Positions 9,127 through 63,268 of a stretch of DNA of 64,000 nt are shown piece after piece. The stretch covers positions 239,159 through 303,158 of the forward strand of contig CP179887.1 in assembly GCA_047456295.1 (NCBI GenBank), in the 5' to 3' direction. This stretch comes from Candidatus Nealsonbacteria bacterium (GTDB lineage: Bacteria > Patescibacteriota > Minisyncoccia > Minisyncoccales > JANBVM01). The translations under genes were made by a program, and so were the position numbers. Within the stretch, counting starts at the first letter, position 1; each line of letters opens with the position of its first letter. Under the pieces are notes generated by a model. That model saw only the letters and a program-made list of their open reading frames with translations, had not been told where the DNA came from and searched no databases.

Positions 9127-12144
<3,018 letters not shown>

Positions 12145-14720: not shown

Positions 14721-14795
14721 TGGTGGACCTGGTGGGAATCGAACCCACGAGCTCCTCATTGCAAATGAGGTGTTCTACCATTAAACTACAGGCCC
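14721..14795 (-). tRNA. tRNA-Ala (anticodon UGC), CCA encoded
   Basis: The reverse complement is GGGCCTGTAGTTTAATGGTAGAACACCTCATTTGCAATGAGGAGCTCGTGGGTTCGATTCCCACCAGGTCCACCA. It folds as a cloverleaf and has the G3:U70 Ala identity pair. Confidence 0.9.
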
Positions 14796-14810
14796 GTTTT
14801 AATAACCCTG

Positions 14811-14882
14811 TGGGCACAGAAGGAGTCGAACCTTCCACCTCTTCTTTATCAGAGAAGCGTTCTACCGCTGAACTATGTGCCC
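14811..14882 (-). tRNA. tRNA-Ile (anticodon GAU)
   Basis: The reverse complement is GGGCACATAGTTCAGCGGTAGAACGCTTCTCTGATAAAGAAGAGGTGGAAGGTTCGACTCCTTCTGTGCCCA. The anticodon loop is CTGATAA. Confidence 0.9.
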
Positions 14883-15972: not shown

Positions 15973-15998
15973 ATTGTTGAATTTGACAAGCCAACATC

Positions 15999-16022
15999 AA
16001 AAAACCTGTAAAAAACTACAGG
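15999..16022 (-). terminator. intrinsic terminator directly downstream of the 16S rRNA
   Basis: The minus strand reads CCTGTA-gttttt-TACAGG followed by TTTTTTG. Confidence 0.6.
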
Positions 16023-16151
16023 CTGCTTGATTGAACATTATGTTTCGGTTTCTCAGAGTTGTCCTGGATCAAGATTTTAGGCTCCTTGATCAACACCTTT
16101 AGAGTTAAAACCCAAATTTACGATTTCAACCCTAGTCGACAACTCAAAATA

Positions 16152-17657
<1,506 letters not shown>

Positions 17658-31171: not shown

Positions 31172-31417
31172 TTATTCCTTGATGTTTAACAGCTGGGAAA
31201 TTTTTTCCTTGTCAAACCCTATTACAATTTGTCCCTCTACTTCTATTACCGGCACTCCCATCTGTCCTGATTTTTCAATCATCTCTTTTCTTCCCTTCTC
31301 GTCTTCTGCCACATTGATTTCCTCAAAATCAATGTTGTGTTCCTTTAAAAAATCCTTTAAGGAAGTGCAGTAAGGACAAACTGGGGTACTAAAGACTTTA
31401 ACCATATTTTTGTTCAT
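31172..31417 (-). CDS. glutaredoxin-like protein (NrdH/YruB type)
   Basis: 81-aa ORF with a CPYC active site and GVPVIEVEG. Confidence 0.8.
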   Translation of the reverse strand: MNKNMVKVFSTPVCPYCTSLKDFLKEHNIDFEEINVAEDEKGRKEMIEKSGQMGVPVIEVEGQIVIGFDKEKISQLLNIKE

Positions 31418-42885: not shown

Positions 42886-44187
42886 TTAACCTTGATTCAT
42901 TTTCTTCTTTAAGAAGCTTGGGGTTTCCCAAAATTTCTCCTTGGATATTATTTCAGCCTCTTCTCTCTCTTTGTCTTTTTTAACCTCCAGAGCATTCTTT
43001 CTAACCCTTATTCTTTCCTTTTCTTTTTTTTGTATTGGCACAACCTTTTTTAAAGAAACAGGGGGATTGGATTGAGAAACCTTAACCTTTATCTTTTTTT
43101 GCTTTACTTTTTTTCTTTTTATTTTACTCACCTTTTTTGGTTTCTTTTTAGGTTTTTTAAAAGTTTTCTTTTGACTGCATCCTGTAGCCAATAAGGTCAC
43201 CTTTATTTTTGAATTTTTTTTAACACCGGAAATCCCGAAGATAATCTTTGCCTCTTTGTGAACCCGACCGGAAATAACCCTGGAAACCTGATCAACCTGG
43301 GTCAAAGAAAGGTTTTTCTGACCTGAAATGTTAAGCATGACTCCCTTGGCCCCATCAATGCCATAAAGGTACAAAGGGGAATTTATCACCTTTTCGATGG
43401 CTTCCTTATCTTCTTTTCCTATCTCAATGGAATTTAAATAAGTCAACCTTCCCCTCCCCTCAAATATGGTCTTTAAATCAGCAAAATCAATATTTATTAA
43501 CCCCGGGGCATAGATTATATCAATCAAACTCCGAATGGAATCTGCCAGCTTCTTATTAATTGCAGAAAGGGCTTTTTTAAGAGGAGCTGTCCTTTCTATG
43601 ATTTGAAAAACTCTTTCATTGGGAATAATGGAAAAGGCATTCAATTTTGTCTTTACCTTTTCCAGAGATTTTCTGGCAATATCCATTTTCTTTTCGCCCT
43701 CAAACTTAAAAGGAAGGGTGAAGATACCATATGTTAAATTTCCTAAATCTTTTGATATCTTGGCAAAAATAGGGACAGCTCCAGATCCCAATCCTCCTCC
43801 CAAACAAACAATTAAAATAACAAAGTCCTGCTCTTGTAATATCTTTTTTATCCTTTGTTTTTCTCTTCTGGCAGCTTCCTCACCTAACTCAGGATTCATG
43901 CCTGTTCCCAGTCCATGGGTTAAATCCTGACCAAAATGAAATCTTGTGACTTTTGCTGAAATCCTTCTCAAGGCCTTGGAATCAGTATTGGCAGCAAAAA
44001 AAGAAGCCCTTTTCACCCTCTGGGCTATCTCAGAAACTATTGAACCTCCTCCACCTCCAATTCCAACCAATAGAACCTTTATCTGTTTAATTTTTTTAGG
44101 TTCTTTTTTATCAACCTCCTTTTTCTTTCTGGCAATGCGTCTACGAAATACTCTTTTTCTTGCTGATTTTTTCTTCTTTTTCCTCAT
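42886..44187 (-). CDS. ftsZ: cell division protein FtsZ with Lys/Arg-rich N- and C-terminal extensions
   Basis: Contains VGIGGGGGSIV, GLGTGMNPELG, and GGGLGSGA (the tubulin signature). Confidence 0.9.
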   Translation of the reverse strand: MRKKKKKSARKRVFRRRIARKKKEVDKKEPKKIKQIKVLLVGIGGGGGSIVSEIAQRVKRASFFAANTDSKALRRISAKVTRFHFGQDLTHGLGTGMNPELGEEAARREKQRIKKILQEQDFVILIVCLGGGLGSGAVPIFAKISKDLGNLTYGIFTLPFKFEGEKKMDIARKSLEKVKTKLNAFSIIPNERVFQIIERTAPLKKALSAINKKLADSIRSLIDIIYAPGLINIDFADLKTIFEGRGRLTYLNSIEIGKEDKEAIEKVINSPLYLYGIDGAKGVMLNISGQKNLSLTQVDQVSRVISGRVHKEAKIIFGISGVKKNSKIKVTLLATGCSQKKTFKKPKKKPKKVSKIKRKKVKQKKIKVKVSQSNPPVSLKKVVPIQKKEKERIRVRKNALEVKKDKEREEAEIISKEKFWETPSFLKKKMNQG

Positions 44188-44265: not shown

Positions 44266-44820
44266 TTAAGCAAGATATACACTTAACAACTTTCTCCAGG
44301 CCTCATAAAGAGGGGTAATTTCTTTTTGTAGTTCTGGAAATAAACCAACATCACGATAGTCTCTTTCAAGTTTGGCAATAATAGAATCTTTTGGCATAAA
44401 CGAAAACATAACTATATAGGCAATATCAGTCATGTGGCTTGTTGAATCAGCGGCTGCCAAAATCTTAGCTTCTAAGGTTTCTGGTTGAACATCCCTACAC
44501 CTATGAGCTCTTATACAATGGGCAACTTTTTCAATCTTCTCAGGCGCTACTTTTATTTGAGAGAGAAAACGCCTGGCTTCAACTTCAGATTTAACAGCGT
44601 GGTCAACATTCTCTTCTCCAATTGCCCTACCTATATCATGAAGCCAAACAGACAATAAAACTATTTCTTTATCTGCTTCAGGATAGTTTTCTAAAATTCT
44701 TTCAGCCCACTTTTTAGCTTCACTAACATGTCTTGGAAGGTAAGGGTATACAGAACAGCTTCTGTTTTCAAAAGTTTTCAAAAAATGAGATTTTGCTTTG
44801 TTTATAATTCCATTTAACAT
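44266..44820 (-). CDS. HD-domain phosphohydrolase
   Basis: 184-aa ORF containing WLHDIGR and other His/Asp residues. Confidence 0.75.
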   Translation of the reverse strand: MLNGIINKAKSHFLKTFENRSCSVYPYLPRHVSEAKKWAERILENYPEADKEIVLLSVWLHDIGRAIGEENVDHAVKSEVEARRFLSQIKVAPEKIEKVAHCIRAHRCRDVQPETLEAKILAAADSTSHMTDIAYIVMFSFMPKDSIIAKLERDYRDVGLFPELQKEITPLYEAWRKLLSVYLA

Positions 44821-46313: not shown

Positions 46314-47054
46314 TTATTTTTTCGCCTTAATCAAAAATCTTGTTGTTTTAAAAACGAGTTTACTTCCTTTATTAAGTTTATTCTGCAAACCCTCTAAAAC
46401 AGGTAAGTATTTATCAACATTAAAACCTTTTACAATCCAAGGTATAACCTTTAAAGAATATACAATAGCGCCAACATCCTTAAACTTTGTTTTACCTGAC
46501 CATTCTTTTGCTTGTTCTATTTTAAACCCAACTCTCTCTAAATTATTTCTAGCTATTTTAGGAGTCCACCCTTTAGTTTGTGGTTCAATATTAAACTCCT
46601 GAACTAAATCTTTTAAATTATCTCCGCCAACTTGTTGAGTTAAAAAAATCCCACCCCCTTGAAGTACTCTGAATACCTCTTTCTCATTATAAAAGCTGTG
46701 CCGACTTAATACTAAATCAAACTCTTTATCAGCAAATGGTAACTTCCCTGATTTATTTGTTTTGACAACTTCAATGCCTAATGGGGTTAATTTTTTTCTC
46801 GCTATTGGTACATTAAGTGAATAACTCTCTGTAGCAAATGTGTGTTTAGAAAAAGGCCCAAATGATGAAAAAGCTTCTCCTCCGCCAGTTCCTATATCCA
46901 ATACTGCTGTTGCTTTTTTAATCAAGTTTTTCGCTTCCTTTTCGTAATTCCAGGGAGGTTTTTCAACTTTTAATCTGTCTTTAATATACGAAAAATCCCA
47001 GCCGCTGAATGGTGTCTGTTCGTCTTTTTTCCATTGAGAATATAAATTATTCAT
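46314..47054 (-). CDS. class I SAM-dependent methyltransferase
   Basis: 246-aa ORF with motif I, VLDIGTGGGE. Confidence 0.8.
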   Translation of the reverse strand: MNNLYSQWKKDEQTPFSGWDFSYIKDRLKVEKPPWNYEKEAKNLIKKATAVLDIGTGGGEAFSSFGPFSKHTFATESYSLNVPIARKKLTPLGIEVVKTNKSGKLPFADKEFDLVLSRHSFYNEKEVFRVLQGGGIFLTQQVGGDNLKDLVQEFNIEPQTKGWTPKIARNNLERVGFKIEQAKEWSGKTKFKDVGAIVYSLKVIPWIVKGFNVDKYLPVLEGLQNKLNKGSKLVFKTTRFLIKAKK

Positions 47055-50740: not shown

Positions 50741-51806
50741 CTAATCACCTAGTCTAATTTCAGCTTCAATAAATTGATCGATTTGACCGTCTAACACCTT
50801 TTCAATACCAGTGGCTTCTACCCCTGTCCTGAGGTCTTTTACCAGTTTATAGGGATGAAGTACATAACTCCTTATCTGGTTTCCCCAGCTGGCTGAAACC
50901 TTTTTTCCCTTTACCTCAGTCATTTCCTTTTGATGACTCTTTTGATAAAAATCGTAAAGTCTTGAATAAAGTATTTCCATTGCTTTTTTTCTGTTCTGGG
51001 CCTGGGATCTTTCTGACTGGCAGGAAGCTACAATGCCTGTTGGTATGTGCCTGATTCTGACTGCTGTCTCTCTCTTGTTTACATATTGACCCCCAGGACC
51101 TGAAGCCCGGTAAAAATCAATCTTTAAATCATCTGATTTAATATTTATATCTTCCTGGGACGGATCCTGGATTCTAGGAACTACCTCCACTAAGGCAAAA
51201 GATGTATGGCGAAGATTCTTTGATGAAAAAGGAGAAATCCTGACCAATCTGTGCACTCCACTCTCATTTTTCAAAAAACCGTAGGCAAAGAGTCCTTTAA
51301 TCTCCAAGGTTACTGTCTTTGTACCAATTCTTCCTTCAGGTCCTCCACCCTCGCCAAAAGACTGATGTAAAATATCAACCTTAAATCCCTTTATCTGACA
51401 ATACCTTTCATACATTCTCAAAAGCATGGTTGTCCAATCCTGGGCATCCTGTCCTCCTGCCCCGGCATAAATGGATAATACAGCTTCTTTTCTGTCATAT
51501 TTTCCTGAAAAGAAGACTTCTTTTATTTTCCTTTTCAACCTCTTCTCCAGTTGATTTATCTCTTTCTGACTGTCTGCCTTCTCTATCTCTTTTTTTAAAT
51601 CATCAAAACTGCTTATCTCCTGGTTTAACTGATTAAATTCCTGGGAAATCTTCACCGCCCTTTTCTTGTCCTGCCAAAGATCAGGATTTTGAAGTTCTTT
51701 CTCTAATTCTTTTAATCTCTTTTTCTTTTTTCCAACGTCAAAGACGGTCCTCGAGATTGAGGAGTTTATTCTTTAAATCTTCAATTTTCTCAGAAATAAT
51801 CTTCAT
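50741..51806 (-). CDS. prfB: peptide chain release factor 2, requires a programmed +1 frameshift
   Basis: Frame 0 runs from ATG at 51806 for 22 codons (MKIISEKIEDLKNKLLNLEDRL) and ends at CTT TGA C. The +1 frame continues DVGKKKKRLKELEKELQNPDLWQDKKRAVKISQEF... into the 304-aa track ORF. GGQ is present, and RF2 is assigned by overall similarity. Confidence 0.9.
51737..51743 (-). other. RF2 autoregulatory +1 frameshift site CTT TGA C
   Basis: The minus strand reads CTCGAGGACCGT CTT TGA C. The slippery CUU plus an in-frame UGA is identical to the classical prfB site. Confidence 0.85.
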
Positions 51807-51921: not shown

Positions 51922-52203
51922 TCAATCTATCCTTATTATCTTGATTGCCTTGCCTTTTATTAAGGCTTCACTAACCTTTCTATAGGCTGAAGATAAGATT
52001 CTTTGAAAAGTGCTCTGGGAGGTTTTCATTTTTTTGGCACAGTCAGTCTGGTCTAAATTCTTAATATTCTTCAATCTCAAGGCTTCCACCTCTTCAGTTG
52101 TTAATTCAACCACTTCCAAAAACCTCATTGGCACACCAAGAGGTTTAAAATAAGTTACATCTGGATTAAATCTGATTCTTCTGCAAAGCCTTGGTCTTAC
52201 CAT
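51922..52203 (-). CDS. DUF134 (UPF0251) small DNA-binding protein
   Basis: MVRPRLCRRIRFNPDVTYFKPLGVP...LTTEEVEALRLKNIKNLDQTDCAKKMKTSQSTFQRIL matches my recollection of the DUF134 pattern with a sigma region 4-like HTH. Confidence 0.7.
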   Translation of the reverse strand: MVRPRLCRRIRFNPDVTYFKPLGVPMRFLEVVELTTEEVEALRLKNIKNLDQTDCAKKMKTSQSTFQRILSSAYRKVSEALIKGKAIKIIRID

Positions 52204-52289
52204 AATTGAAATTATTAAAAATTAATGATATTTTATAAATAAAGAAGGCTTCCCAGCCCTTTAAAAAGGGCTGGGTTCTCAACCTTCTT

Positions 52290-52559
52290 TTATTTTTTAG
52301 TCCTTAGTTTAGCCAGGCGTTCTTTAATACCTTTTAATTCATCTTCTAAAAGTTCAGCTTCTTCTCTTAATATTTCAGTCTCTTCTTTTCTGGTTATTTT
52401 GGGTTCATATGGACCATAACCCCAGAATCTACCCCAGCCACGACCACGACCACGACCCCAACCTCTACCCCCACCCCAACCCATTCCGCCACAAGGACCC
52501 CATCCCCAACCAGTGCCTGGACCAAAACCTAAAGGACCTGTTCCGTCAAATCTTGGCAT
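52290..52559 (-). CDS. DUF5320-like protein with a Gly/Trp/Arg-rich N-terminus and a coiled-coil C-terminus
   Basis: Starts MPRFDGTGPLGFGPGTGWGWGPCGGMGWGGGRGWGRGRGRGWGR, followed by an EE/KL-rich helix. This family is commonly paired with DUF134 (from memory). Confidence 0.6.
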   Translation of the reverse strand: MPRFDGTGPLGFGPGTGWGWGPCGGMGWGGGRGWGRGRGRGWGRFWGYGPYEPKITRKEETEILREEAELLEDELKGIKERLAKLRTKK

Positions 52560-52884: not shown

Positions 52885-55800
52885 TTATTTATATTTTTGG
52901 ATATCTTCCAACTCTGCTTGAACCTTTTTGATATTCTGGTCAGTATTATACATCTCTCGACTTACACTTTCTATCTTTCCCCAAGTCTCATTGATGGTCT
53001 TTTTTAATTTTGATATAAAACTCCGTTTCTCATTAATCCAACCTTGAACTTCCTCTGGATCATAGGCGTCTCTTTTTATATCTTCGCATTCTGAAATCTC
53101 TCCTTCCACCTTTTCAATAAGACCTTTATTTTTGTCCAATGTGCTATTCCATCTATCTATATTATCTTGATCGCGCATCATATCTTCTTGTAACTCATAT
53201 AAATATTCTTCTTTTTTCCGCCGTCTTTCTTCAATAACTTCTCTAGAAACTAATTTAAGAAATCCTGATTCGGGGTCAACTTTTGATACATTCAATAAAA
53301 GTTCTTCTCCTTCAGATGGAATACCTATTGACTGGTCTAAATCCGTGCCGAAAGCAAATGCAGAAGTGCCGTCTTCAAAAACCATATCTATTGTATCAAT
53401 GTTTTCGCCTGTCTCATCATAAATAACTTTTTCTACAATTCCCGTAATTGAATCTCCTTGGTTTAAACTTGATAGTCTTTCTTTAAGTTTTAAAGAAACG
53501 ATTTTAACGTCGAAGCAATATTGCCAAGAATGTCTTTTTATGAAATCAGCAATCTCTGGACGGACACGCCATTTTAAATATTCAATACAGAAAGGAGTAA
53601 ACAATTCACCTTTATCAATATCGTATTCCCAATCCCTGGGTTTTGTTTTATATTCTTCCTCTGTGAGATTAATTGATATTTTATCTCTTTCATATCGTTT
53701 AGATGAAAGTTTAACTATAATTTCTTGACCAATTTTGAGATTATCAATTTCTCCTCTGATTAAATATTTTTTATCAATGACAGTTTCGAAACTATGAACC
53801 ACCCCTAGTTCTCTGGGAACAACGACCGTAATTCTTTCTTCCCTGATATCTTCTATGTATCCTTTTAGATTAACCCTATTAATCCTGCTATCATTATTGA
53901 ATATCTCTTTTTTAATTTTTTTCAGGTCCTGGATAATCCGATCAATATTACTTAATTTAGGACAACCTGCTCTATTAAAATCTTTTATGACAAGGTCCAA
54001 TGTTTTTCCTTCGATTCTTTTTAAGCCCGGACCAAAATAAGAAAGACTCATTTCAGCCATCTCTACCGGAATTTCAAATCCATCTTCTGTCACAGCTATA
54101 ATCCAACCACTCTTTCCGTTAGGGTCTCGATTTACTTGATTTATCTTTACCTTGAGATATTCTCCTTTTTTCTCAACTAATCTTTTTCCTTCAATAAAAG
54201 AACTTAAAATAGCTAAAGGTTCACCGTCTTTTTCTATCCATCCGACAATTCTAGCTGGATTACTCCTTTTTTCACTAATCCATATGCCTTCAACAGGGTA
54301 TAATAATTTTTCTTCAAGTAAAAGCTTGTTTTGGAAAGATATCTTTGTCCTGCTGAATTTCGGACGTTCATCTATTGCAGTAAGAATCCTCCTGTACCCT
54401 ATTATAACTGGTGAAGGAGTTTCAATAACTTTCTCTAAATAATACCTTCCGTTTTCTTCTTTCGCATAAACTAAACTGTCAACTGGAAATTTCTGGTCAA
54501 TAAAAAGATCTATGTTTTCCTTGGTTGAAATTTCATCAAACGTCTGAACCGTAAAGGAAGCTGTCGGCAAAAATAATAAATCACCATTAAATACAACTTT
54601 TTTTTCAGTGGCTGCTGTTATAATCGCTCTTTTTCTTTCTTTCCAATTACCGGCACAATGTGGAGAAATCATTCCTATTTCACTTTTTCCTTTTACAGGA
54701 TAAGAAATTACTTCTCCCTTATTTAAATCTACTAACTTCTCCGGCCAAACGACGGGCATTAAAGAACGAACTTTATCAAGCAAACCTATATTAACCTTTC
54801 GACTTTCAGCTTTTTTTGTTTTTTCTCTAAAGCTCTCGATAAACTCATCTGTATCAGAAATAATCTTTTCTAAAATATTACGATTAACAAAATGATATCT
54901 TACCCATTCCCTACCCTTATTCCTAAAGCATAAAGATAGCTTTATTATTAAATCCAAATCATCTCTGCATCCTATTTTCAGACCCTGCTGAATTGCATAG
55001 ACTCTTGCTTTAGTTACAGCTGTCCATCTCTCATCCCAGATTAAAAGACCGTGATAAATATCATATAATTCTGCTCCTGTTCTAATTTCTTCTTCGCAAG
55101 CCGACAATAAAGCAGTCATTGTTTCTGGCAAACAATTTTGTTTCTCTGCCAACTGAATCAAAGCGACCTCATAAGATGGCCTTGGAATATGGAATATTTC
55201 AAGAACTTTATCTGTGACATCTCCTTTATTATCAATGAATTTCTCTCTTTTGGTGGCTCTAGATGACCTTTCTATCTCTAGATTTAACTCTCCTCCGGGA
55301 GACCCGACCCAAGGGATTCTTTCGGTTATACCAGCTGCTTTTAAGGTTAGTAAAGGATCGTCAAGGCAACTCCTGAAAATTTCTGGTCGCGTATATTCAT
55401 TAAACTCTTCTTTAAATATTTCTTCCGAATAAAGGCAATAAACATATCCTTTCTGAACTCTGCCAACTCTTCCCCATCTCTGCTTACAGCCAGCTTTGCT
55501 ATGATGCCTTGCTGACAAAGAAGATATTTCAGTCTCTGGATCCCATTGAGATTCTTTTATGTAACCAGAATCTATTACATACACAACATCGTCTAATGTA
55601 TGCGAAGTTTCAGCGATATTAGTGGTAATTAAAACCCTTCTATTCTCTCCTTTTTGATTAAATCTTTTAGCCACTGCCTTTTCGCCTAATCGGCTGTAAA
55701 TCGGGATAACGGGGATTGAATCTTTTGGATCTATTATTTTTTTTCTCTCCTTAATTAATCTGTAACTCTTCTCAATTGTTGATTCTCCTTGTAAAAAGAT

Positions 55801-56877
55801 TAAAATACTTCCTGTTTCAGTTTCCTTTAAAAACTTCGTAGTAAATTCTGTCACTGTTTCCGCTAATTCATGCCTACTGGGAGGACTCTTTTTATCCTGC
55901 CAAAATTTCTCTCTTTTTTCTTTATTTGAACAAAGCCAACAATCGCAATTCTCAATCGATCCGCCTTTCCAAAAATGGGGCCCGCAGTAATTTTTTTCTT
56001 CTTTCAATGTCTCGGAAAGATCAAAAACATCAACAGATATGCCTTCTTTCTGAAAAGTTTCTTTAAATTCATCAACATTGATAGTAGCTGAAGAAACAAT
56101 AAGCCGTAATTGGGGATGCTTAAGTAACTCATTTTTCAAAAGCATTAATATGGTATCAATATTACAGGTTCTTTGATGGGCTTCGTCTACCATAATCAAA
56201 CTGTATTGACATAAATGACCGTCTCTTATCCAATTTCTTAAAGAGCCATCGGTAACAATTACTCCTAAGTTTTTACGGTCATATCTTTCATCTCCCCTGT
56301 GACGAAGACCAAGAAGCTCCATTTCTCCTATCCCAGAACCACCTAAAAGTTTTTCACCGATTGTTTCGGGAATCCTTTCAACTGCTGAACTCAAGGGCTG
56401 CGTTTGGATAAATTGACCCTGGTGTAGCAAACGTTCAGTGAAATCTCCCGCGTAGTCTAAAGGCGCTAAAATTAATCTGTAAGGGATAAAAGTTGACTTA
56501 CCTGTTCCTGTCGGACTAGCTAATACCACCACCTGGTTTTTATCAAGCTTTTCATAAAGTTCCAGGATATGTTCATCTGTAATTCTAATTTTCATCTCGG
56601 TTTTTTCTATTTCCTTTTTGTTTATCTCTGGATTTCGCTCTCCATGAAAAGTATAAGAATCGTTAGACAAAGAGAAATTCATAAAAAGAATTTCTCCTAA
56701 CTCTATCCCAAAATAAGGGAGTTCAATATCTCTGACATCTTTTTTATGGTCTTTCCTGTGTTTTTTACATCTCTCTGGTATACTTTCTCCTCTTTCTGAC
56801 ATCAGATCATATACTTCTTTCGAAAATTTAAATTCTTCTCCACAATCTTTACATATATATCTAATTTCATTTACCAT
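52885..56877 (-). CDS. giant DEAH/RHA-family (HrpA/DHX-like) helicase with an N-terminal zinc ribbon and a ~780-aa C-terminal extension (OB/S1-like repeats, terminal coiled coil)
   Basis: Motif I ASPTGTGKST (about 56490-56525), II MVDEAH (56176-56193), III SSAT, V TNIAETSHTLDDVVYVIDSG, VI QRWGRVGR. An HA2-like PEIFRSCLDDPLLTLKAAGI follows. The N-terminus has CKDCG...RCKKH. The C-terminus has several S1-like segments and EE/KK-rich heptads. The start is taken as ATG at 56877, 5 nt after AGGTGA; the track ORF extends to GTG at 56886. Confidence 0.8.
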   Translation of the reverse strand: MVNEIRYICKDCGEEFKFSKEVYDLMSERGESIPERCKKHRKDHKKDVRDIELPYFGIELGEILFMNFSLSNDSYTFHGERNPEINKKEIEKTEMKIRITDEHILELYEKLDKNQVVVLASPTGTGKSTFIPYRLILAPLDYAGDFTERLLHQGQFIQTQPLSSAVERIPETIGEKLLGGSGIGEMELLGLRHRGDERYDRKNLGVIVTDGSLRNWIRDGHLCQYSLIMVDEAHQRTCNIDTILMLLKNELLKHPQLRLIVSSATINVDEFKETFQKEGISVDVFDLSETLKEEKNYCGPHFWKGGSIENCDCWLCSNKEKREKFWQDKKSPPSRHELAETVTEFTTKFLKETETGSILIFLQGESTIEKSYRLIKERKKIIDPKDSIPVIPIYSRLGEKAVAKRFNQKGENRRVLITTNIAETSHTLDDVVYVIDSGYIKESQWDPETEISSLSARHHSKAGCKQRWGRVGRVQKGYVYCLYSEEIFKEEFNEYTRPEIFRSCLDDPLLTLKAAGITERIPWVGSPGGELNLEIERSSRATKREKFIDNKGDVTDKVLEIFHIPRPSYEVALIQLAEKQNCLPETMTALLSACEEEIRTGAELYDIYHGLLIWDERWTAVTKARVYAIQQGLKIGCRDDLDLIIKLSLCFRNKGREWVRYHFVNRNILEKIISDTDEFIESFREKTKKAESRKVNIGLLDKVRSLMPVVWPEKLVDLNKGEVISYPVKGKSEIGMISPHCAGNWKERKRAIITAATEKKVVFNGDLLFLPTASFTVQTFDEISTKENIDLFIDQKFPVDSLVYAKEENGRYYLEKVIETPSPVIIGYRRILTAIDERPKFSRTKISFQNKLLLEEKLLYPVEGIWISEKRSNPARIVGWIEKDGEPLAILSSFIEGKRLVEKKGEYLKVKINQVNRDPNGKSGWIIAVTEDGFEIPVEMAEMSLSYFGPGLKRIEGKTLDLVIKDFNRAGCPKLSNIDRIIQDLKKIKKEIFNNDSRINRVNLKGYIEDIREERITVVVPRELGVVHSFETVIDKKYLIRGEIDNLKIGQEIIVKLSSKRYERDKISINLTEEEYKTKPRDWEYDIDKGELFTPFCIEYLKWRVRPEIADFIKRHSWQYCFDVKIVSLKLKERLSSLNQGDSITGIVEKVIYDETGENIDTIDMVFEDGTSAFAFGTDLDQSIGIPSEGEELLLNVSKVDPESGFLKLVSREVIEERRRKKEEYLYELQEDMMRDQDNIDRWNSTLDKNKGLIEKVEGEISECEDIKRDAYDPEEVQGWINEKRSFISKLKKTINETWGKIESVSREMYNTDQNIKKVQAELEDIQKYK

Positions 56878-56928
56878 TTTCATCACCTAGTTTTTTCAAT
56901 AAATATTTAATTTTAAATAACTATTTTT

Positions 56929-56956
56929 AATCTAATCTTTTTTTGGTTTCTGTCAA
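56929..56956 (-). promoter_or_regulatory. candidate promoter of the helicase gene (TTGACA-N16-TAGATT)
   Basis: The minus strand reads TTGACAgaaaccaaaaaaagatTAGATT. Confidence 0.45.
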
Positions 56957-56976
56957 ATAGAAATGAATTTTCAAAT

Positions 56977-57003
56977 AAAAAAGTGGCTTATTTTTAAAGC
57001 CAC
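56977..57003 (-). terminator. intrinsic terminator after the 1,007-aa gene
   Basis: The minus strand reads GTGGCTT-taaaaat-AAGCCAC followed by TTTTTTATTTG. Confidence 0.65.
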
Positions 57004-57029
57004 AATATAATTTAATATTTATTTTTTAT

Positions 57030-60000
57030 TTAGTACCATTCTGAAGCTTCACCATAATAATTATTTCTTATTCCACCAAGTCCTTCTTTTTCTATTGTGT
57101 TTTTTCTTAACCTTGCGCTGATTATCCTCGGTTTCACTACCAACTGGCCTCGATATTTCCTTAAAAGTTCGATTACTGCCCGAAAGGCTCCGACAGCGGC
57201 TGGCGTAAGTCCGGTAGATAAATATATATCTAGCTCTAATCCGTCCCAGTATTCATTTTTCATTTCCGGCCTCCTTATTAATAATGCTCTGAAACTAAGA
57301 CTTAAGTCTTCTTCTTCAACCTCTTTCCTTAACAGCTTAATGATTTCTTCTATCTGTGAGTATACTTCCCTGAAAGCAAATTCTTGCTGATCGGCTGAAG
57401 TTTCTTTTCTCTGTATTTCTACATTTCGGATTAAGGACATTTCAGTAAAGTAATCTACCTCCATATGGCGTAGAGAAACAAGAGATAAGGGCAAGTAATA
57501 GAACTTGCCGGACGGCCTTTTTATTTCCGGAAAGGCAAATAACGAAAGTGGCTCTTCTTGCGTACCGTCGCCATAAGCAACTCTAAGCATTATTTCTTTT
57601 TTTATTTCTTTGCTCTGGTAAAGATAATCTCTGATTCCCTCTACAAAAACATGAGAACGAATTGAATTCATACTTAATGGAGTATTATTCTTTAAAGAAT
57701 CGATAGCTCGACTATGAAGTCTGTCTATTTCTCTTCTGCTACTTATATATTGTTTATCCTTCTTCCTTTCATTTATCGCTAAATGAATTCTTTCTATTAA
57801 TTCTGAAGGGAGCTCGGCCTGTTCTTTGATTTCAGGAGTTTCTAAAATGAGTTCTATGGGTAGAGGTTTCCAAGGTGGATTTATCACCACTATTCCTCCT
57901 TGAACTTCTTCTAAGACTGAGAGTAAATTTGTGTTTTTAATCTTTTTCCGAAATTCCGGTATTTCTGTGGGTCTCACGTATGAAAAAGTTATACCTTGGT
58001 AATCTGAATCTTCTATTTTCAAAGCGTTTAATAAATCTTCGGCTTCTTTATCTTTAAATTCAGCTATCACTGTATAATTCTGAAAAGCTTCTCTTTCTAC
58101 CACTTCGCAGTTAAAAGCGAAATCTTTTCTATACCTGTTTATATCTACTTTTTTAGTAATTAACCTGCCAAAAGTTCTTGCGTCTGTAGAAGCGTTTCGT
58201 AGTCCACTGGGCTTTTTCCATCCCTCTTCTGGAACCTCAATAATCCAAAGCTCCAATGGAGCTCTTCTCTGAGGAAAGTGCCTCATATTCCTTGTACGAT
58301 TCATTCTTTTTTGCACTTCTTCATCTAAAAGAAGATACATTCTGGTCGGAGCAAATAAAATATGCATTCCCTCTACTGTTTCAGATACTTTTACTAAATT
58401 TTTTATTTCTCTTAATATCTTTTCTGGATTCTTATCTTTGTAAATAATATTCAGCATTAAGGTATTAATCATTTCATTGCTTAACAAAAGACAACGAGTT
58501 TTAACTTCCATCTCACAATCCAGCAGCATTTTAACATTATCTTCAATCCATGTTTTATCGTATTCAGGGTCAGCTGAAAATCTTGGTTTTGAAAGTAAAA
58601 TAACTGGTTCTTCTGCTTCTACCCATTTTTCAGATTTATCTATAGTCCAAGACGGCGGAATGCAAAATCTCTGATTACATTTCAAAATCCAAAACTTTTC
58701 TTTTGGCTCCAAATAACATCTTGCTTTTACTTTCTCTATTTCTTCAACAGATACGCCCCCTGTGATATAAGCCATAATTGCCTGCCGGAATCTTGTAGCT
58801 AATAAAGCCGATCTGCCATAATTAAATGATTCTGAATAAAATAATCTATTTTCAGGCAAGTCAGTTCCTAAAATAATGCCTTCGGGCCTTGGAGCATTGA
58901 GAAAAAGCCAAATCACTTCTTCTCTTGTCCATATGCCTTTGCATATTGCTTCTGCAATCATTTCCCTGCTTAGATAACCGGCTTTTTCAAGCTCTATAAT
59001 CTTTTCCTCTATTTCAGGAGACAGATCAAGTAAAACAAAATATAATTTTACCCCTTCTTCATGAAAAATTATTCCTTTTTCAGCCTCTTTAAAATTAATA
59101 CCGTATTTTTCAGCTATCTCTAAAATTTCTTTGGGAATCTCTCTTGGAGCCCTTTTCTCTCTCATCTTCTTAAATTCTTCATGAACTTTGCCATTTATAT
59201 CCTCTCTTATATCCTTGGTAAAGATAATATTCAAAGAGCCGCTGTAATCCCGGGCTCTGCTAAACATTTCATTAACTAATATTCTCACTGCGCTTCCATC
59301 TTTAACAAGCCCTGGCTGGTCAAAGGTATAAAATTCATCTACTTCTAAACAGGCTTTAAAAAAATCATACCTGAATGCGCCCAAAGCTATTATATAATCT
59401 TTAACCCTGCTTATTACTGTTCTCCACTGCCTGATTCCTTTTCCTCTGCCCTCTTCTGCCTCTTTTTGGCGATTTCTCACTTTATTCCAGGCAACAGCAA
59501 GTCTCCTTGATATTTCTTGATGATGTTTAATCCAGTCATTGAAAAATCTCGGCTTCATTTTAAGGAATTCTAAGAATTCTTTTCCTGTCAAATCAACCTC
59601 CACTAACGGAACATCTTTTTTTGTTGCTTTCTCCAAGTCTAAACATAGAGCCCTATTCTTATCAATAGATATAGCTACTAATTTGTTTGATAAATCAGGT
59701 CTTTTTGTCCTTAAAATCTGGGTTGTCTCTAGGACTGACGTCTTTACTTCTTTTGTTGGAGTACCTGAAATATTAAATCCATCTATTATTGCTGAACCTT
59801 CTTCTAAAAGAAATTGACGGTAGGATTGAGGAAATTGTAGCCCAAGAATTCTTTCAAAGAAATCTATTTCTTTAAGAAATCTCTCTTGTTCTATTTTTAT
59901 CAACTGAAGTCTCCTCTTTTTCTCTTCCTTTACCCATTCTGGAAGAGAAATTCCTTCTTTTTTAAGATAATTGCGGTAACAATTATTACAGATAAAGTCT

Positions 60001-60053
60001 TTAACTTTTCTTTTCTTTTTTCCACAAATTGGACATTCTAAATTAGCATTCAT
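57030..60053 (-). CDS. 1,007-aa protein: N-terminal zinc ribbon + SUKH (SMI1/KNR4)-like domain + ~840 aa of unrecognised sequence
   Basis: CPICG..(13)..CNNCY at aa 7-25. FERILGLQFPQSYRQFLLEEGSAIIDGFNISG (aa ~65-96, nt ~59559-59873) fits the SMI1/KNR4 N-terminal pattern. A perfect SD, AGGAGGTG, lies 6 nt upstream of the ATG. Confidence 0.75.
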   Translation of the reverse strand: MNANLECPICGKKKRKVKDFICNNCYRNYLKKEGISLPEWVKEEKKRRLQLIKIEQERFLKEIDFFERILGLQFPQSYRQFLLEEGSAIIDGFNISGTPTKEVKTSVLETTQILRTKRPDLSNKLVAISIDKNRALCLDLEKATKKDVPLVEVDLTGKEFLEFLKMKPRFFNDWIKHHQEISRRLAVAWNKVRNRQKEAEEGRGKGIRQWRTVISRVKDYIIALGAFRYDFFKACLEVDEFYTFDQPGLVKDGSAVRILVNEMFSRARDYSGSLNIIFTKDIREDINGKVHEEFKKMREKRAPREIPKEILEIAEKYGINFKEAEKGIIFHEEGVKLYFVLLDLSPEIEEKIIELEKAGYLSREMIAEAICKGIWTREEVIWLFLNAPRPEGIILGTDLPENRLFYSESFNYGRSALLATRFRQAIMAYITGGVSVEEIEKVKARCYLEPKEKFWILKCNQRFCIPPSWTIDKSEKWVEAEEPVILLSKPRFSADPEYDKTWIEDNVKMLLDCEMEVKTRCLLLSNEMINTLMLNIIYKDKNPEKILREIKNLVKVSETVEGMHILFAPTRMYLLLDEEVQKRMNRTRNMRHFPQRRAPLELWIIEVPEEGWKKPSGLRNASTDARTFGRLITKKVDINRYRKDFAFNCEVVEREAFQNYTVIAEFKDKEAEDLLNALKIEDSDYQGITFSYVRPTEIPEFRKKIKNTNLLSVLEEVQGGIVVINPPWKPLPIELILETPEIKEQAELPSELIERIHLAINERKKDKQYISSRREIDRLHSRAIDSLKNNTPLSMNSIRSHVFVEGIRDYLYQSKEIKKEIMLRVAYGDGTQEEPLSLFAFPEIKRPSGKFYYLPLSLVSLRHMEVDYFTEMSLIRNVEIQRKETSADQQEFAFREVYSQIEEIIKLLRKEVEEEDLSLSFRALLIRRPEMKNEYWDGLELDIYLSTGLTPAAVGAFRAVIELLRKYRGQLVVKPRIISARLRKNTIEKEGLGGIRNNYYGEASEWY

Positions 60054-60104
60054 TTATTACACCTCCTAATATTTAGTTCTAAAAGAACTTTATTAACTAT
60101 TTAT

Positions 60105-60163
60105 AATATATTTAATAATAGTTTTTTGTCAAATTTGCGTAAAATTGTTTTTTAGGTTATAGT
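60105..60163. promoter_or_regulatory. back-to-back divergent promoters between the 1,007-aa gene (-) and the sigma-like gene (+)
   Basis: Minus strand: TTGACA (60132-60127)-N16-TATATT (60110-60105). Plus strand: TTGCGT (60135-60140)-N17-TATAGT (60158-60163), then 8 nt to the ATG at 60172. A palindrome AGTTCT-aaa-AGAACT at 60075-60089 lies in the minus-gene leader. Confidence 0.5.
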
Positions 60164-60171
60164 GATTTATT

Positions 60172-61026
60172 ATGTCTAACAAGAAGATAAAAAAAGATAA
60201 AAAGGATATAAAAAAGAAAGTAAAAGAAGCGACGGAAGAAAAATTAAAACGGGGAATTCAGCAAACTAAACAGCTTCAACAATATTTGAAAAAAATCGAC
60301 AAAATTCCTCCTCTTTCACCAAAAGAAGAAAATAAGTTATGGAAAAAAATAAAAGAAAGAGAAGGTGATAAAAAATTAGAAAATAAGATTTTAAAAGCAA
60401 ATTTAAAACTGGTAGTTTCGACTGCCAAAAAAATCATTAAAAGACCCGATATTAGAGCTCGCTTTACACTTTTAGAGCTAATTTCAATAGGTGAAGAGAG
60501 TTTGCGAGCTACAATTAAAGTTCATAGATGGCACTGGGAAGAAAGAAAAAAGAAATTTTCTTTCTATGTTACTTATGGTATAAAGGGAGATATTTTTCGG
60601 AGTCTGATGGTCAAAGAGCGGAAAGAATACGAAAAAAATATTTTTAGCCCTGACGAAAAAAAAGAACTATTGCTTTACGGAGAAAAAGATGGGAAAGTTG
60701 ACTTAATCGCTAAAATTTATCACAGGGATAAAAAAATAATAATCAAAGCTAAAAATCTTAAGGCGGGAGAAGAACTTTTAAAAGAAATAAATCAAGCACT
60801 TCAAAAAGAAAAATATTTCTCAATTCCTTGGCACGAAGAAAAAAATGGGATAATTTCCTATGGTTTTTTGTTAAAAAAATTAGGAGATCAGGGCTTCCTT
60901 GAAGTTTTAAGAGCTGAATTTCGTGAATATAAAAGCCTTGCTCCCGGGACTGAAGGTGTATTAGCGAATAAAAAATTTAACAGATATAAAATTAAACCCA
61001 ATCTATCACGAATCATTTATAAGTAA
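60172..61026 (+). CDS. sigma-70 region 1.2/2-like domain fused to a C-terminal domain of unknown function (no regions 3 or 4)
   Basis: YLKKIDKIPPLSPKEENKLWKKIKE..GDKKLENKILKANLKLVVSTAKKI aligns to the sigma-70 consensus YLKEIGKIPLLTxEEE..GD..A...LIEANLRLVVSIAKKY. The 2.2-2.4 equivalent, LELISIGEESLRATIKV....KFSFYVTYGIKGDIFRSL, is diverged. Aa ~165-284 are paralogous to the next ORF. Confidence 0.65.
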   Translation: MSNKKIKKDKKDIKKKVKEATEEKLKRGIQQTKQLQQYLKKIDKIPPLSPKEENKLWKKIKEREGDKKLENKILKANLKLVVSTAKKIIKRPDIRARFTLLELISIGEESLRATIKVHRWHWEERKKKFSFYVTYGIKGDIFRSLMVKERKEYEKNIFSPDEKKELLLYGEKDGKVDLIAKIYHRDKKIIIKAKNLKAGEELLKEINQALQKEKYFSIPWHEEKNGIISYGFLLKKLGDQGFLEVLRAEFREYKSLAPGTEGVLANKKFNRYKIKPNLSRIIYK

Positions 61027-61042
61027 GACTTAATAATGATTT

Positions 61043-61071
61043 TTGTCAAATTTTTATTTTTATTGTATAAT
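61043..61071 (+). promoter_or_regulatory. candidate promoter (TTGTCA-N17-TATAAT), 10 nt upstream of the ATG at 61082
   Basis: The plus strand reads TTGTCAaatttttatttttattgTATAATtatcctgcctATG. Confidence 0.55.
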
Positions 61072-61081
61072 TATCCTGCCT

Positions 61082-61456
61082 ATGAATAAAAAAATAAAAA
61101 AACTTAGATTATATGGAGAAAAAGATGGTCTCAAGGGTTTTATTGCTGATATTTATGTAAAAAATAATAAATTAATCGTAGAAAGTGAAAATAAAAAGGT
61201 GAAAAAAGAGCTTTTTGAGGAAATAAACAAAGAAATTCAGAAAGGAGAAGCTTTCCGTATTCCTTATACAGAACACACTGGTAGAACTATTGAAGAAGGT
61301 GTTTTACTTCAGAAAATAGGAGATTCAAAATTCCTTGAAGCTCTTGAGGCTGAATTTTGGAAAGTTATTGGTTTAGGAGATATGGGTAAATTTGGAAATA
61401 AGAAATTTGGCGGATATGAAATTAAAGCCTACAAATCAAAAATTATTGAGAAATAA
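61082..61456 (+). CDS. 125-aa protein, stand-alone paralogue of the C-terminal domain of the sigma-like protein
   Basis: LRLYGEKDGLKGFIADIY...FRIPYTEH...LLQKIGDSKFLEALEAEF...GNKKFGGYEIKAYKSKII aligns with LLLYGEKDGKVDLIAKIY...FSIPWHEE...LLKKLGDQGFLEVLRAEF...ANKKFNRYKIKPNLSRII in the 284-aa protein. Confidence 0.7.
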   Translation: MNKKIKKLRLYGEKDGLKGFIADIYVKNNKLIVESENKKVKKELFEEINKEIQKGEAFRIPYTEHTGRTIEEGVLLQKIGDSKFLEALEAEFWKVIGLGDMGKFGNKKFGGYEIKAYKSKIIEK

Positions 61457-61492
61457 TTGTTGATTTGAAATTTAACATTCAAAGAATTTTAT

Positions 61493-61520
61493 ATAAAAAA
61501 ATACCACTTAATAGAAGTGG
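61493..61520. terminator. bidirectional hairpin terminator between convergent genes
   Basis: CCACTT-aatag-AAGTGG is flanked by an A-run on the left of the plus strand, which becomes a T-run for the minus-strand gene. Confidence 0.55.
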
Positions 61521-61525
61521 CGTTG

Positions 61526-62464
61526 TTATTGTTCAGAAATATATTTATTCAGAAAGTCTTCCATTTCCGGGCAAACTTTTACCAAACCCGTATCCCAAGC
61601 AGCAATATTCTCAGCAATGAATTCTGGATCCGAAAAAGCTGATTCTTTTGGAATATCTCCAGAAAGACATTCTCTTGCGACTTGACTGACGGGGCCAGGG
61701 CCGTCTAATTGTTTTTCACAAACTTTTTCCCATTCAGTTAAATGGTCATCAAAAAAGATTTTTGCAAACTCGCTTGGTTTACTTAAAGATTTACTTTTAA
61801 AAATATTAAGATGACACAATTCATGTGTTATTCTCCATTGAGTCTGTTTCCCCCGTGGAAGTTTTCCTTTTTCGTTTTGATAAACATGAATAGTTCTAGA
61901 AAGCTCTGGTTTTTCTTTAAGTGTTTCTTTATTTAAGACATCTGCTTTTGTTATAGTTCCTTTTTTCGTACCAGGTTTTTGATTACTAATAAATATTATC
62001 TTATCTACCACTTCTATATCTCTAAATCTAATTGAAAGTTTACTGTTATATAGCGCAGTCATCGCATCCTTGATTTTTTCCTCTATATTATCTATTCTTT
62101 CTAAGGTAATTATGTCTTTAATTCCTGTTACTGCTGGCGTATTAAAAATCTCAAATTCTTTCATACCTAATCCTGTTCCTATTTTATACATTTCTTGATA
62201 TTCTGCTTCAGTTGGCTTAACTTCCAAATCGAGTTTTTCGATATCTGTTGGTTCACGACCTTCTTGTTCTATTCTCTGAATTAATTCTCCTCTGGCTTTT
62301 TCTACTCCTTCTTCTTTAAGTTCAATTACTCTTTGTTTTATCGTTTCTCTTACTTTCGGCATCACTTCCTTCAGCATCTCAGGATCTGGCTGAGAGAATT
62401 TTCCTTCTCTTGCTTGTTTTAATAACTCATCGTCTCTATCATTGGGAACATTTGTACATCCCAT
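61526..62464 (-). CDS. HExxH-motif protein, putative zinc metallopeptidase (family unassigned)
   Basis: 312-aa ORF with WRITHELCHLNIF at aa ~221-233. No signal peptide or TM segment. An SD-like AAGGAG lies 11 nt upstream of the ATG. Confidence 0.55.
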   Translation of the reverse strand: MGCTNVPNDRDDELLKQAREGKFSQPDPEMLKEVMPKVRETIKQRVIELKEEGVEKARGELIQRIEQEGREPTDIEKLDLEVKPTEAEYQEMYKIGTGLGMKEFEIFNTPAVTGIKDIITLERIDNIEEKIKDAMTALYNSKLSIRFRDIEVVDKIIFISNQKPGTKKGTITKADVLNKETLKEKPELSRTIHVYQNEKGKLPRGKQTQWRITHELCHLNIFKSKSLSKPSEFAKIFFDDHLTEWEKVCEKQLDGPGPVSQVARECLSGDIPKESAFSDPEFIAENIAAWDTGLVKVCPEMEDFLNKYISEQ

Positions 62465-62526
62465 TTTTTATCACTCTCCTTTTATGGTGTATGTAGTATA
62501 TATTTTATTTTTAATTTTCTGTATTC

Positions 62527-62555
62527 AATTTAAGATAGTAATTTTACTTTGTCAA
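62527..62555 (-). promoter_or_regulatory. candidate promoter of the HExxH gene (TTGACA-N17-TAAATT)
   Basis: The minus strand reads TTGACAaagtaaaattactatctTAAATT. Confidence 0.5.
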
Positions 62556-62567
62556 CAAACTACAAAA

Positions 62568-62622
62568 CCCGGGCCTGTGGCTCGGGCTTCAAAAACTCCG
62601 GCGGTAGGATTCGAACCCCAGG
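62568..62622 (-). pseudogene. tRNA 3'-half-like remnant (Gln-like) with its downstream terminator hairpin
   Basis: ggctcgggcttcaaaaactccggcgg (62579-62604) differs at 3 of 26 positions from the hairpin and tRNA 3' end at tRNA-Gln (48972-48997). The T-arm-like GGTAGGATTCGAACCCC cannot form a proper T stem, and no 5' half is present. Confidence 0.5.
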
Positions 62623-62683: not shown

Positions 62684-62755
<72 letters not shown>

Positions 62756-62765
62756 AAAAAGGTTA

Positions 62766-62837
62766 AGCGGCAGATGGGATTTGAACCCACGGCCTTCTCC
62801 TTGGGAAGGAGACATTCTACCACTGAACTACTGCCGC
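62766..62837 (-). tRNA. tRNA-Gly (anticodon CCC)
   Basis: The reverse complement is GCGGCAGTAGTTCAGTGGTAGAATGTCTCCTTCCCAAGGAGAAGGCCGTGGGTTCAAATCCCATCTGCCGCT. Confidence 0.9.
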
Positions 62838-62857
62838 ATGTTCGTTATAAGATATCT

Positions 62858-63268
62858 CTACCACTGGATTACCCTCGCTAATAAATCTTTGATTTTTTCC
62901 AACAACATTTCTGAAAAACCCTGACCTGACACTAATCCTTCTTTTTGAACTTCAGCAGGAGGTATAACCACAACAGGATTCTCTCCTTCTTTTACATATC
63001 CTTGTTCTCTGGCTTTTTCCTCCCAATAACTTTCTTTTTCTGTTTGAGAGATTCCGGCTTCTAATCTCTGTTTTTCATCCTCTAAAATCTGAATTTCTTT
63101 TTCAAAAGACTCAATTTTTTCAGCCAACTCTGTTCTCTTTTCACTTATCTTAAAAAGAGAAATCCCTAAAAAGCCAATTAAAAATAAAATCAGAAGGTAA
63201 AATATAACCTGAAAAATAAATCCTTCTTTATATCGCTTCTTTTTTTGTCTTTTAGATTTTGTTATCAT
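62858..63268 (-). CDS. ftsB: septum formation initiator (FtsB/DivIC-like)
   Basis: A basic N-terminus, a single TM helix, then a coiled coil (EKIESFEKEIQILEDEKQRLEAGI). The start is trimmed to Met17. Confidence 0.65.
   Translation of the reverse strand: MITKSKRQKKKRYKEGFIFQVIFYLLILFLIGFLGISLFKISEKRTELAEKIESFEKEIQILEDEKQRLEAGISQTEKESYWEEKAREQGYVKEGENPVVVIPPAEVQKEGLVSGQGFSEMLLEKIKDLLARVIQW

Follow-up and report, generated by a model that had tools for sequence, protein, structure and literature searches.

Shine-Dalgarno-type leaders of an inserted three-gene cassette in a Candidatus Nealsonbacteria lineage with an altered 16S rRNA tail

The anti-Shine-Dalgarno (anti-SD) motif of 16S rRNA has been detected in 48% of Parcubacteria, and in the subgroup without it SD helices are presumably not formed (Tsurumaki et al. 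2022, RNA 28:1041; PMC9297842). Here we describe a stretch of 64,000 nucleotides (nt) from Candidatus Nealsonbacteria bacterium (contig CP179887.1, positions 239,159 to 303,158; in the following "the window"), in which a three-gene cassette carries SD-like leaders in a host of this kind. Like the published cases, the host belongs to the candidate phyla radiation (CPR)/Parcubacteria and its 16S 3' end is without CCUCCU. Since loss of the anti-SD from a Parcubacteria subgroup is published, a host with a 16S unable to pair with GGAGG adds a further case to a phenomenon already known. The difference lies in what the published study is silent on, namely genes that keep SD-like leaders, residual pairing through AUCACC, and prfB. 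The affiliation with Parcubacteria follows the depositor's label, the window proteins having identical counterparts in a Candidatus Nealsonbacteria metagenome-assembled genome (MAG) of NCBI.

Another close comparison is provided by the SD-blind Bacteroidia studied by the Fredrick laboratory, which likewise combine an SD-poor genome with a tiny set of genes that have strong SD-like leaders; there, rpsU and the frameshift site of prfB have kept their SD (PMC13000453, PMC10798248). In the Bacteroidia, however, the anti-SD is present but sequestered, whereas in the present host its core is mutated. Their SD genes are autoregulated core genes, whereas here they form an inserted cassette, and prfB has a hairpin here and not an SD. 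From the sequence comparisons presented below we hold with moderate confidence that the SD-type leaders of the cassette are a retained legacy, probably trimmed to GUGAU, in long residence in a lineage without an anti-SD.

The 16S tail of the host and the SD-like sites of the window

The window contains one rRNA operon with a single 16S gene (16152-17657, minus strand), which is full length (Rfam RF00177, 1434.6 bits, model positions 1-1533). In a tail alignment its 3' end (16152-16165) reads GGAUCACCACAUUU, compared to the bacterial consensus GGAUcACCUCCUUu. CCACA thus stands where the anti-SD core CCUCC belongs, while AUCACC is kept. A first-pass annotation of this DNA had proposed that the host 16S cannot pair with GGAGG, and the tail bears this out.

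A pattern scan over one genome per GTDB species found the same tail in just one other organism (L001, labelled Saccharibacteria). Its 16S is ~90% identical to that of the host and the two tails match base for base. Because L001 carries the identical tail, the host tail is old and inherited and not a sequencing error. The 16S of L001 holds in addition an insertion of ~860 nt (L001 2111-2973) of the CPR rRNA type, which is absent from the 16S of the window. The pattern GGATCACCAC is matched by only two GTDB species representatives, of which the Nostoc one (CCACC) was ruled out as unrelated. In this genome, Nostoc sp. 106C (L002 464-520), one cyanobacterial 16S copy ends with GGATCACCACCTTA, i.e. 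with CCACC for CCTCC, which could be due to a variant operon or to an error in the sequence.

Three SD-like sites had been named by the first-pass annotation, and all of them were found on the minus strand where it had placed them. The helicase gene has AGGTGAT (56882-56888) 4 nt before the ATG at 56877, such that AGGTGA (56883-56888) is followed by TGAAA and the start codon. The gene of a 1007-amino-acid (aa) SUKH protein has AGGAGGTG (60060-60067), followed by TAATAA, 6 nt before the ATG at 60053. At the gene of an effector-like protein with an HExxH motif, the site AAGGAGAGTGAT (62470-62481) comprises AAGGAG (62476-62481) 11 nt before the ATG at 62464 and also GTGAT (62470-62474) 5 nt before it. 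These three are purine-rich, GGAGG-like motifs located 4-12 nt 5' of a start, at a frequency above chance. The ATG at 56877 is the third in-frame start candidate of the helicase open reading frame (ORF); since sister loci have stop codons 5' of the equivalent ATG, we take it as the true start.

To quantify these sites we scored the 20 nt 5' of 55 gene starts by their duplex energy with the canonical tail and with the host tail. Almost all leaders in the window are AT-rich and score between 0 and -5 kcal/mol. The four strongest duplexes with the canonical tail were obtained for the HExxH gene (-15.1 kcal/mol), the SUKH gene (-14.1), a glutaredoxin gene (-12.2) and the helicase gene (-9.8). Only 3.4% of arbitrary ATGs in the window (n = 1460) reach -9.8 kcal/mol, and the probability that at least three of five island genes do so is 3.6e-4. 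Duplex energies of island and core genes differ accordingly (Mann-Whitney p = 0.003). Core starts show no SD enrichment, with 2 of 50 reaching -8 kcal/mol compared to 7.3% of the arbitrary ATGs. The sole exception in the core is the glutaredoxin gene (31172-31417), whose GGAGGAGAGTG run lies within an overlapping upstream ORF. As ~0.7 core starts at -12 kcal/mol are expected by chance, this match needs no special explanation.

Among the remaining genes of the island, an SD-like leader was looked for and not found at the DUF134, DUF5320 and 137-aa genes. The status of the 284-aa gene is ambiguous because its AGTGAT overlaps a probable -10 box, TATAGT. The earlier claim that SDs occur on island genes only thus holds insofar as the three strongest leaders, the glutaredoxin aside, are located there; as a statement about the island genes in general it is too broad (see below).

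Pairing with the resident tail and leaders of other cassette copies

With the host tail the helicase leader is predicted to form 6 base pairs (bp) (GGUGAU:AUCACC) at -9.2 kcal/mol, close to its -9.8 with the canonical tail, and the effector leader 5 bp (GUGAU) at -7.3 kcal/mol. Both host-tail duplexes are stronger than those of all core genes in the window. In two further copies of the cassette, the effector leader of locus L005 and the helicase leader of locus L006 yield -9.1 kcal/mol each with the host tail. Within the window pairing is limited to the AUCACC segment (4-6 bp, -5.9 to -9.2 kcal/mol), complementarity to CCUCC finding no counterpart in the host tail. A GUGAU at 4-5 nt from the start equals a GGAGG at 8-9 nt and thus corresponds to the normal SD geometry. 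Because (G)GUGAU complements the retained AUCACC at this geometry, the leaders most likely continue to serve the resident ribosome as short SD sites of 4-6 bp. Pairing itself and its importance for translation are what we infer from these data. The earlier view that only the helicase leader can still pair proved too narrow, as the GTGAT of the effector leader and the GGUG of the SUKH leader also fit AUCAC(C) of the host.

SDs of the GGUGA(U) type, which pair with AUCACC, are the usual SD form in many archaea. The cassette shares with them the GGUGAU motif and the spacing of ~4-5 nt to the start codon. The archaeal tail, however, also has CCUCC and the motif occurs genome-wide, whereas in the present host there is AUCACC only and a single cassette has the motif. 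A clade-wide use of GGUGAU as SD was ruled out, since GTGAT stands 3-6 nt before the start in only 6 of 864 genes. A compensatory SD matching the new tail (UGUGG/GUGG) was likewise ruled out, as no positional enrichment was found 5' of the 864 genes.

The cassette of the window belongs to an AT-rich subfamily, whose further members L004, L005 and L006 have protein identities of 92%, 68% and 61% to the window copy; the next homologue follows at ~50%. In L005 the cassette has another genomic context, after the alanyl-tRNA synthetase (AlaRS) gene, and the core genes are without SDs. All seven readable leaders of the subfamily, representing three independent lineages (window/L004, L005 and L006), are SD-like with -9.6 kcal/mol or better; the SUKH leader of L006 falls in a scaffold gap and is left out of the counts. 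GTGAT is found 4-5 nt before the ATG in all helicase leaders (three lineages; AGGTGAT, GAGTGAT and GTGTGAT) and in all effector leaders (two lineages; GAGAGTGAT and GAGGTGAT). The bases just 5' of it vary, being AG, GA or GT for the helicase and GAGA or GAG for the effector. The effector site is the same in L004 and reads AAGAGGTGAT in L005. The SUKH site is also the same in L004 and becomes GAGGTGA in L005, such that SUKH leaders have GGTGT or GGTGA.

The cassette genes of seven outgroup loci are closely packed in an operon, most of them 8-50 nt apart, and their SDs are GGAGG or GAGG, never GTGAT. Unlike in these operons, each cassette gene of the subfamily has a conserved TTGACA-N16-18 promoter of its own and a leader of 45-56 nt. 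In the window, all on the minus strand, promoter-like sequences are found for the helicase (TTGACA-N16-TAGATT, 56929-56956, leader ~45 nt, TTGACA invariant in four genomes), the SUKH gene (TTGACA-N16/18-TATATT/TATTAT, 60103-60132, leader ~44 nt) and the effector gene (TTGACA-N17-TAAATT, 62527-62555, leader ~56 nt). A terminator-like hairpin with a T-run (56983-57003, minus strand) sits between the SUKH and helicase genes, which argues for separate transcription units.

The course of events that we favour, with moderate confidence, is the following: The host would start translation essentially without SD pairing, from AT-rich or very short leaders, CCUCC having been lost. The SD-type leaders of the cassette would be the legacy of a past in SD-using organisms. 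The cassette would then have been resident for long and have diversified in an AT-rich lineage whose visible core genes have no SDs, its operon being broken into three units with one promoter each. Of the extended SD the 3' half, (G)GUGAU at 4-5 nt, would have been kept, the leaders probably being trimmed to the part that can still pair.

The prfB hairpin and SD use in the wider clade

The right-hand boundary of the island is formed by prfB, whose ORF1 (51737-51806, minus strand; ATG 51806-51804) ends at the +1 shift site CUU UGA C (51743-51737). An internal SD ~3 nt 5' of this site that could pair with the 16S anti-SD was not found, the host tail being without CCUCC. At the usual place of the internal SD a hairpin of 5-6 bp, UCCUC/GAGGA (51763-51748), ends 4 nt before CUU. 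Its GAGGA is the 3' arm of the helix and varies to GCGGA, ACGGA, AUGGA and GAGC. Compensatory changes maintain the helix in 30 distinct relatives (UCCGCC/GGCGGA, UCCGUC/GACGGA, UCCAU/AUGGA and UCCGCA/UGCGGA), and in some cases they alter both encoded amino acids, e.g. CUC to CGC together with GAG to GCG. Helix cells are paired in 88% of cases compared to 25-57% in register-shift controls. Double changes were found in 26 cells compared to 9.4 ± 2.0 in shuffles, none of 500 shuffles being as high. A subgroup of the relatives (L012-L066) uses a shifted GCUCA/UGAGC helix.

The hairpin appears to imitate the SD:anti-SD duplex in cis. That upstream hairpins can stand in for the internal SD duplex during frameshifting has been shown by experiment (PMC6321510), and a 2025 survey of prfB frameshifting mentions neither such hairpins nor CPR bacteria (PMC12421855). 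The covariation provides an independent readout, at the level of sequence, of a long-term SD-independence of the lineage. The hairpin also suggests how a recoding signal that depended on an SD can be replaced after its ribosomal partner has been lost.

SD use in the wider clade was assessed from a metagenome scan based on LepA, which provided 80 related loci with ~1 Mb in total. LepA was used in place of the helicase, for which the chosen peptide patterns had been of low complexity and had led to no confirmed match. SDs are scarce in all 80 loci, whose median duplex energies range from -0.2 to -4.9 kcal/mol compared to -6.5 to -9.3 kcal/mol in SD-using loci. Of 93 genes in the nine loci that are closest by LepA (74-77% identity), a single one reaches -8. 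More distant relatives, which may retain CCUCC in their tails, contain gene clusters with textbook GGAGG at 6-8 nt. These comprise NUDIX, deacetylase and thiamine-binding genes, small proteins of unassigned function and, in L082, grpE-dnaK-dnaJ. The latter locus (LepA 55% identical) is otherwise SD-poor, and its grpE, dnaK, DUF7544 gene and dnaJ (L082 12623-18370) have GGAGG at 5-7 nt. Since a core stress operon thus uses SDs, the presence of an SD alone is no mark of foreign DNA in this clade. A PHROGs scan, which covered the SD-bearing genes of relatives L031 and L082 and not the island proteins, gave generic matches only.

Among the 864 genes SD-like leaders were found on 19% of the genes without homologues in other loci and on 2.7% of the widely shared genes, a contrast of little weight because all loci are centred on LepA and the class is not the same as "foreign". 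Lack of a homologue in other loci was dropped as a proxy for foreign genes, since it mixes accessory genes with ordinary non-syntenic ones such as grpE-dnaK-dnaJ of L082. The sporadic SD-like leaders on core genes showed no conservation among orthologues. In three SD-poor relatives a small protein of 103-104 aa without Pfam match, which adjoins LepA on the opposite strand (L066 7149-7460, L061 3909-4223, L062 2735-3049), keeps a strong SD (TAAGGAGGTGATTT / TTAAGGAGAAACTT).

At 455 operon-first genes, -10-like hexamers peak 6 nt 5' of the ATG (21 compared to a background of ~5). Part of the transcriptome of the clade is therefore probably leaderless. In the window such hexamers, often of the form TGnTAnAAT, are seen, for example, 6-8 nt before the ATG of the genes at 44266-44820, 46314-47054, 42886-44187 and 28056-29978.

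The island, the cassette and competing explanations

The cassette lies on an island of ~10.9 kb (window ~51.9-62.68 kb) between tRNA-Thr(CGU) and prfB, which is also present in L004. The island starts directly 3' of tRNA-Thr (tRNA-Gly(CCC) and tRNA-Thr(CGU), 62684-62837, minus strand). All eight relatives examined are without it: they have LepA, DivIC, tRNA-Gly, tRNA-Thr, prfB, ftsE, ftsX and tRNA-Gln, and the distance between tRNA-Thr and prfB is ~0.2 kb. The island comprises seven genes. Apart from the three cassette genes these are DUF134 (51922-52203) and DUF5320 (52290-52559; together 51922-52559, minus strand), which belong to the insertion by synteny, and two genes on the plus strand. 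The first of these encodes a 284-aa sigma-70-like protein (60172-61026; regions 1.2-2; NCBIfam RpoD/RpoS 6e-12, far below cut-off), and with a promoter-like TTGCGT-N17-TATAGT 8 nt before its ATG it is probably expressed from a near-leaderless transcript. The second is a 137-aa ORF of unassigned function (61043-61456; 124 aa from the ATG at 61082) with TTGTCA-N17-TATAAT 10 nt before the ATG at 61082.

Between the window and L004, identity is 98% for the flanks and 96% for the 1007-aa and helicase genes. Despite this similarity of the strains the segment beside tRNA-Thr (60080-62596), which includes the 284-aa gene, is swapped with respect to L004 (3455-7608) and is thus hypervariable. L004 has an additional CpXC-SUKH protein (778 aa) where the window has the sigma-70-like gene and the 137-aa ORF. 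An insertion 3' of a tRNA with a sub-region that is hypervariable between 98% identical strains resembles other tRNA-adjacent islands. In contrast to these, no integrase or recombinase domain was found in the island by Pfam and NCBIfam scans, and no att-like direct repeats were found flanking it.

Comparison of codon usage and k-mers with the core, which the first-pass annotation had proposed, gave a mixed picture of the island when carried out on the window. Synonymous codon usage of the island genes is inside the core spread (z of -0.3 to +0.7), the 137-aa ORF being an outlier on the host-like side. The G+C content at third codon positions (GC3; 0.18-0.28 compared to 0.32 ± 0.04 in the core) and the tetranucleotide correlation with the core (0.90-0.94 compared to 0.95-0.98) deviate mildly. 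Such a composition agrees with long residence, or with exchange between AT-rich hosts of a similar kind, and is at odds with a fresh import from a donor like Atribacteria or Thermotogae.

The first cassette gene (61526-62464, minus strand) encodes the effector-like protein of 312 aa, in which a conserved N-terminal module (MGCTNVPNDRDDELLKQAREGKFSQPDPEMLKEVMP) is joined to a C-terminal domain that is variable and here has HELCH (HExxH). The second (57030-60053, minus strand) encodes the 1007-aa protein, which has an N-terminal SUKH (SMI1/KNR4) domain (Pfam SUKH_5/6; SUKH_5 2e-9; PDB YobK 7.7e-8 with the family profile) and is identical to NCBI XOB40718.1 of the Candidatus Nealsonbacteria MAG. 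The third (52885-56877, minus strand) encodes a DEAH-box (HrpA/Prp43-like) helicase of 1330 aa with Pfam DEAD/Helicase_C domains and an N-terminal zinc-ribbon-like segment; it matches NCBIfam HrpA (9.6e-54, below cut-off) and PDB Prp43/DHX/HrpA structures (1e-45 to 1e-35). Homologues of the 1007-aa protein are spread over MAGs labelled Thermococci, Thermotogae, Atribacteria, WS2 and Harrisonbacteria. Where the flanks are on the contig, the helicase comes after the SUKH gene, which usually has a gene of ~230-330 aa before it; a gene of ~450 aa often stands after the helicase. Neighbours include Mrr, methylase, DrmA-like helicase, recombinases and transposases.

The ~300-aa proteins have in common an N-terminal module of ~35 aa (MGC.N...DD...GK..PDP), followed by C-terminal domains that are unrelated among the copies, with HExxH in several and an LHH nuclease in L093. 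In L004 the first ~36 residues and the leader are kept (85% DNA identity) and the C-terminal domain is swapped. By sequence this is a polymorphic-effector architecture. The effector had no match in Pfam or NCBIfam, and a secretion or trafficking domain of a recognised type such as LXG or RHS was not found in these searches. The cassette resembles SUKH immunity/polymorphic toxin loci in its constant N-terminus with swapped C-termini (HExxH, LHH) and in the adjacent SUKH domain, toxin activity being putative. It differs from them by the absence of a recognised secretion or trafficking domain, and by a SUKH domain that forms the N-terminus of a 1000-aa protein with a DEAH helicase always next to it. 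A known defence system was rejected as an identification, as PADLOC, in which the cassette is not included, gave just a weak Cas3-helicase similarity. Domain content and gene neighbourhood suggest an uncharacterised conflict or defence cassette.

How the SD-type leaders came to be in this host can be explained in several ways. The first-pass annotation had taken them as useless SDs of a recent import. Its foreign origin stands, given the insertion compared to eight relatives next to a tRNA and the patchy distribution of the cassette across phyla, in which it has canonical SDs elsewhere. One could thus consider the leaders to be non-functional relics of an import from an SD-using bacterium or phage that have not yet decayed, which would also agree with the mildly atypical GC3 and tetranucleotides and with a GGAGG in the SUKH leader that is unable to pair with CCACA. 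"Recent" and "useless" fared less well. Codon usage is host-like, the cassette has diverged from L004 as much as the flanks, and the operon has been rebuilt as separate promoter-driven units. SD-like leaders are kept in sisters at 68% and 61% identity, in L005 next to core genes without SDs, and GTGAT can pair with AUCAC(C). Neither an integrase nor att repeats were found, and a phage origin was rejected as a search of the IMG/VR viral contigs gave no relative of the SUKH protein. We therefore consider undecayed relics to be rather unlikely, though still to be reckoned with. The purine-rich motifs could also be conserved for a reason other than 16S, i.e. as a binding site of a cassette or host regulator or as a leader RNA element. 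The entire leader beyond the SD is indeed conserved in the window, L005 and L006, the cassette has an RNA helicase and the island a sigma-like protein. The motifs, however, match an SD exactly in sequence and in position (4-9 nt before AUG), in other hosts these genes have ordinary SDs, and folding of the leaders is weak (-2 to -6 kcal/mol) with nothing evident or decisive in structure, which makes such a function improbable. An artefact, i.e. chance purine runs, wrong starts, a chimeric contig or a 16S pseudogene, appears very improbable: While only three to four genes are concerned and one core gene has a chance SD-like run, the enrichment over arbitrary ATGs is significant, sister loci confirm the starts, the full-length 16S has a tail in common with L001, and the same arrangement is found in the independent Logan assembly L003 and in L004.

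Several observations also weigh against the leaders being a retained, trimmed legacy that still pairs. The window covers 64 kb of a genome of 689 kb. A convincing SD is absent in four of the seven island genes (DUF134, DUF5320, 137-aa and 284-aa). The SUKH leader, which forms 8 bp with the canonical tail, has just GGUG:CACC (4 bp) as a contiguous match to the host tail. Four of the six genes with GTGAT at 3-6 nt are island genes of the window, L004 and L005, such that AUCACC, if a usable anti-SD, serves almost no other genes. SD-independence of L005 was judged from the leaders of its core genes and not from its 16S tail, and from L006 only cassette genes are available. The whole leader is conserved with 73-78% column identity, which is about the level of coding DNA, and the excess conservation of GTGAT is therefore modest. 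The cassette lineages are just three and of shared ancestry, such that GTGAT could simply be inherited.

A more far-reaching possibility, which we put forward only tentatively, is that GGUGAU:AUCACC survives as a private initiation channel, almost exclusively for a mobile conflict cassette, while core functions that depended on the anti-SD were rewired, as with the prfB hairpin. Bacteria that are truly without anti-SD are rare and constitute natural experiments on the purpose of the SD. The locus supplies test leaders for them, as three SD-type genes in an otherwise SD-less genome. Sister copies keep just that half of the motif that the mutated tail can bind, which could be used to test mRNA selection by a truncated tail. 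In CPR genomes of this kind, start prediction based on SDs as well as heuristics that equate an SD with a foreign gene will misbehave.

Two minor observations concern RNA genes of the window. At the end of the DivIC gene a stretch of 26 nt (62856-62881) has 73% identity to part of tRNA-Thr (62733-62758) and may be a tRNA remnant or due to chance. The rRNA operon (8941-17657, minus strand) is broken up by protein-coding genes: 16S is followed by a YbaK-like tRNA_edit gene (15445-15972), a methyltransferase (14873-15445), tRNA-Ile, tRNA-Ala, an M20 peptidase (13367-14593), a mechanosensitive (MS)-channel-like protein (12487-13173), 23S and 5S. In L001, which is without the peptidase, the layout is partly the same, at ~70% identity.

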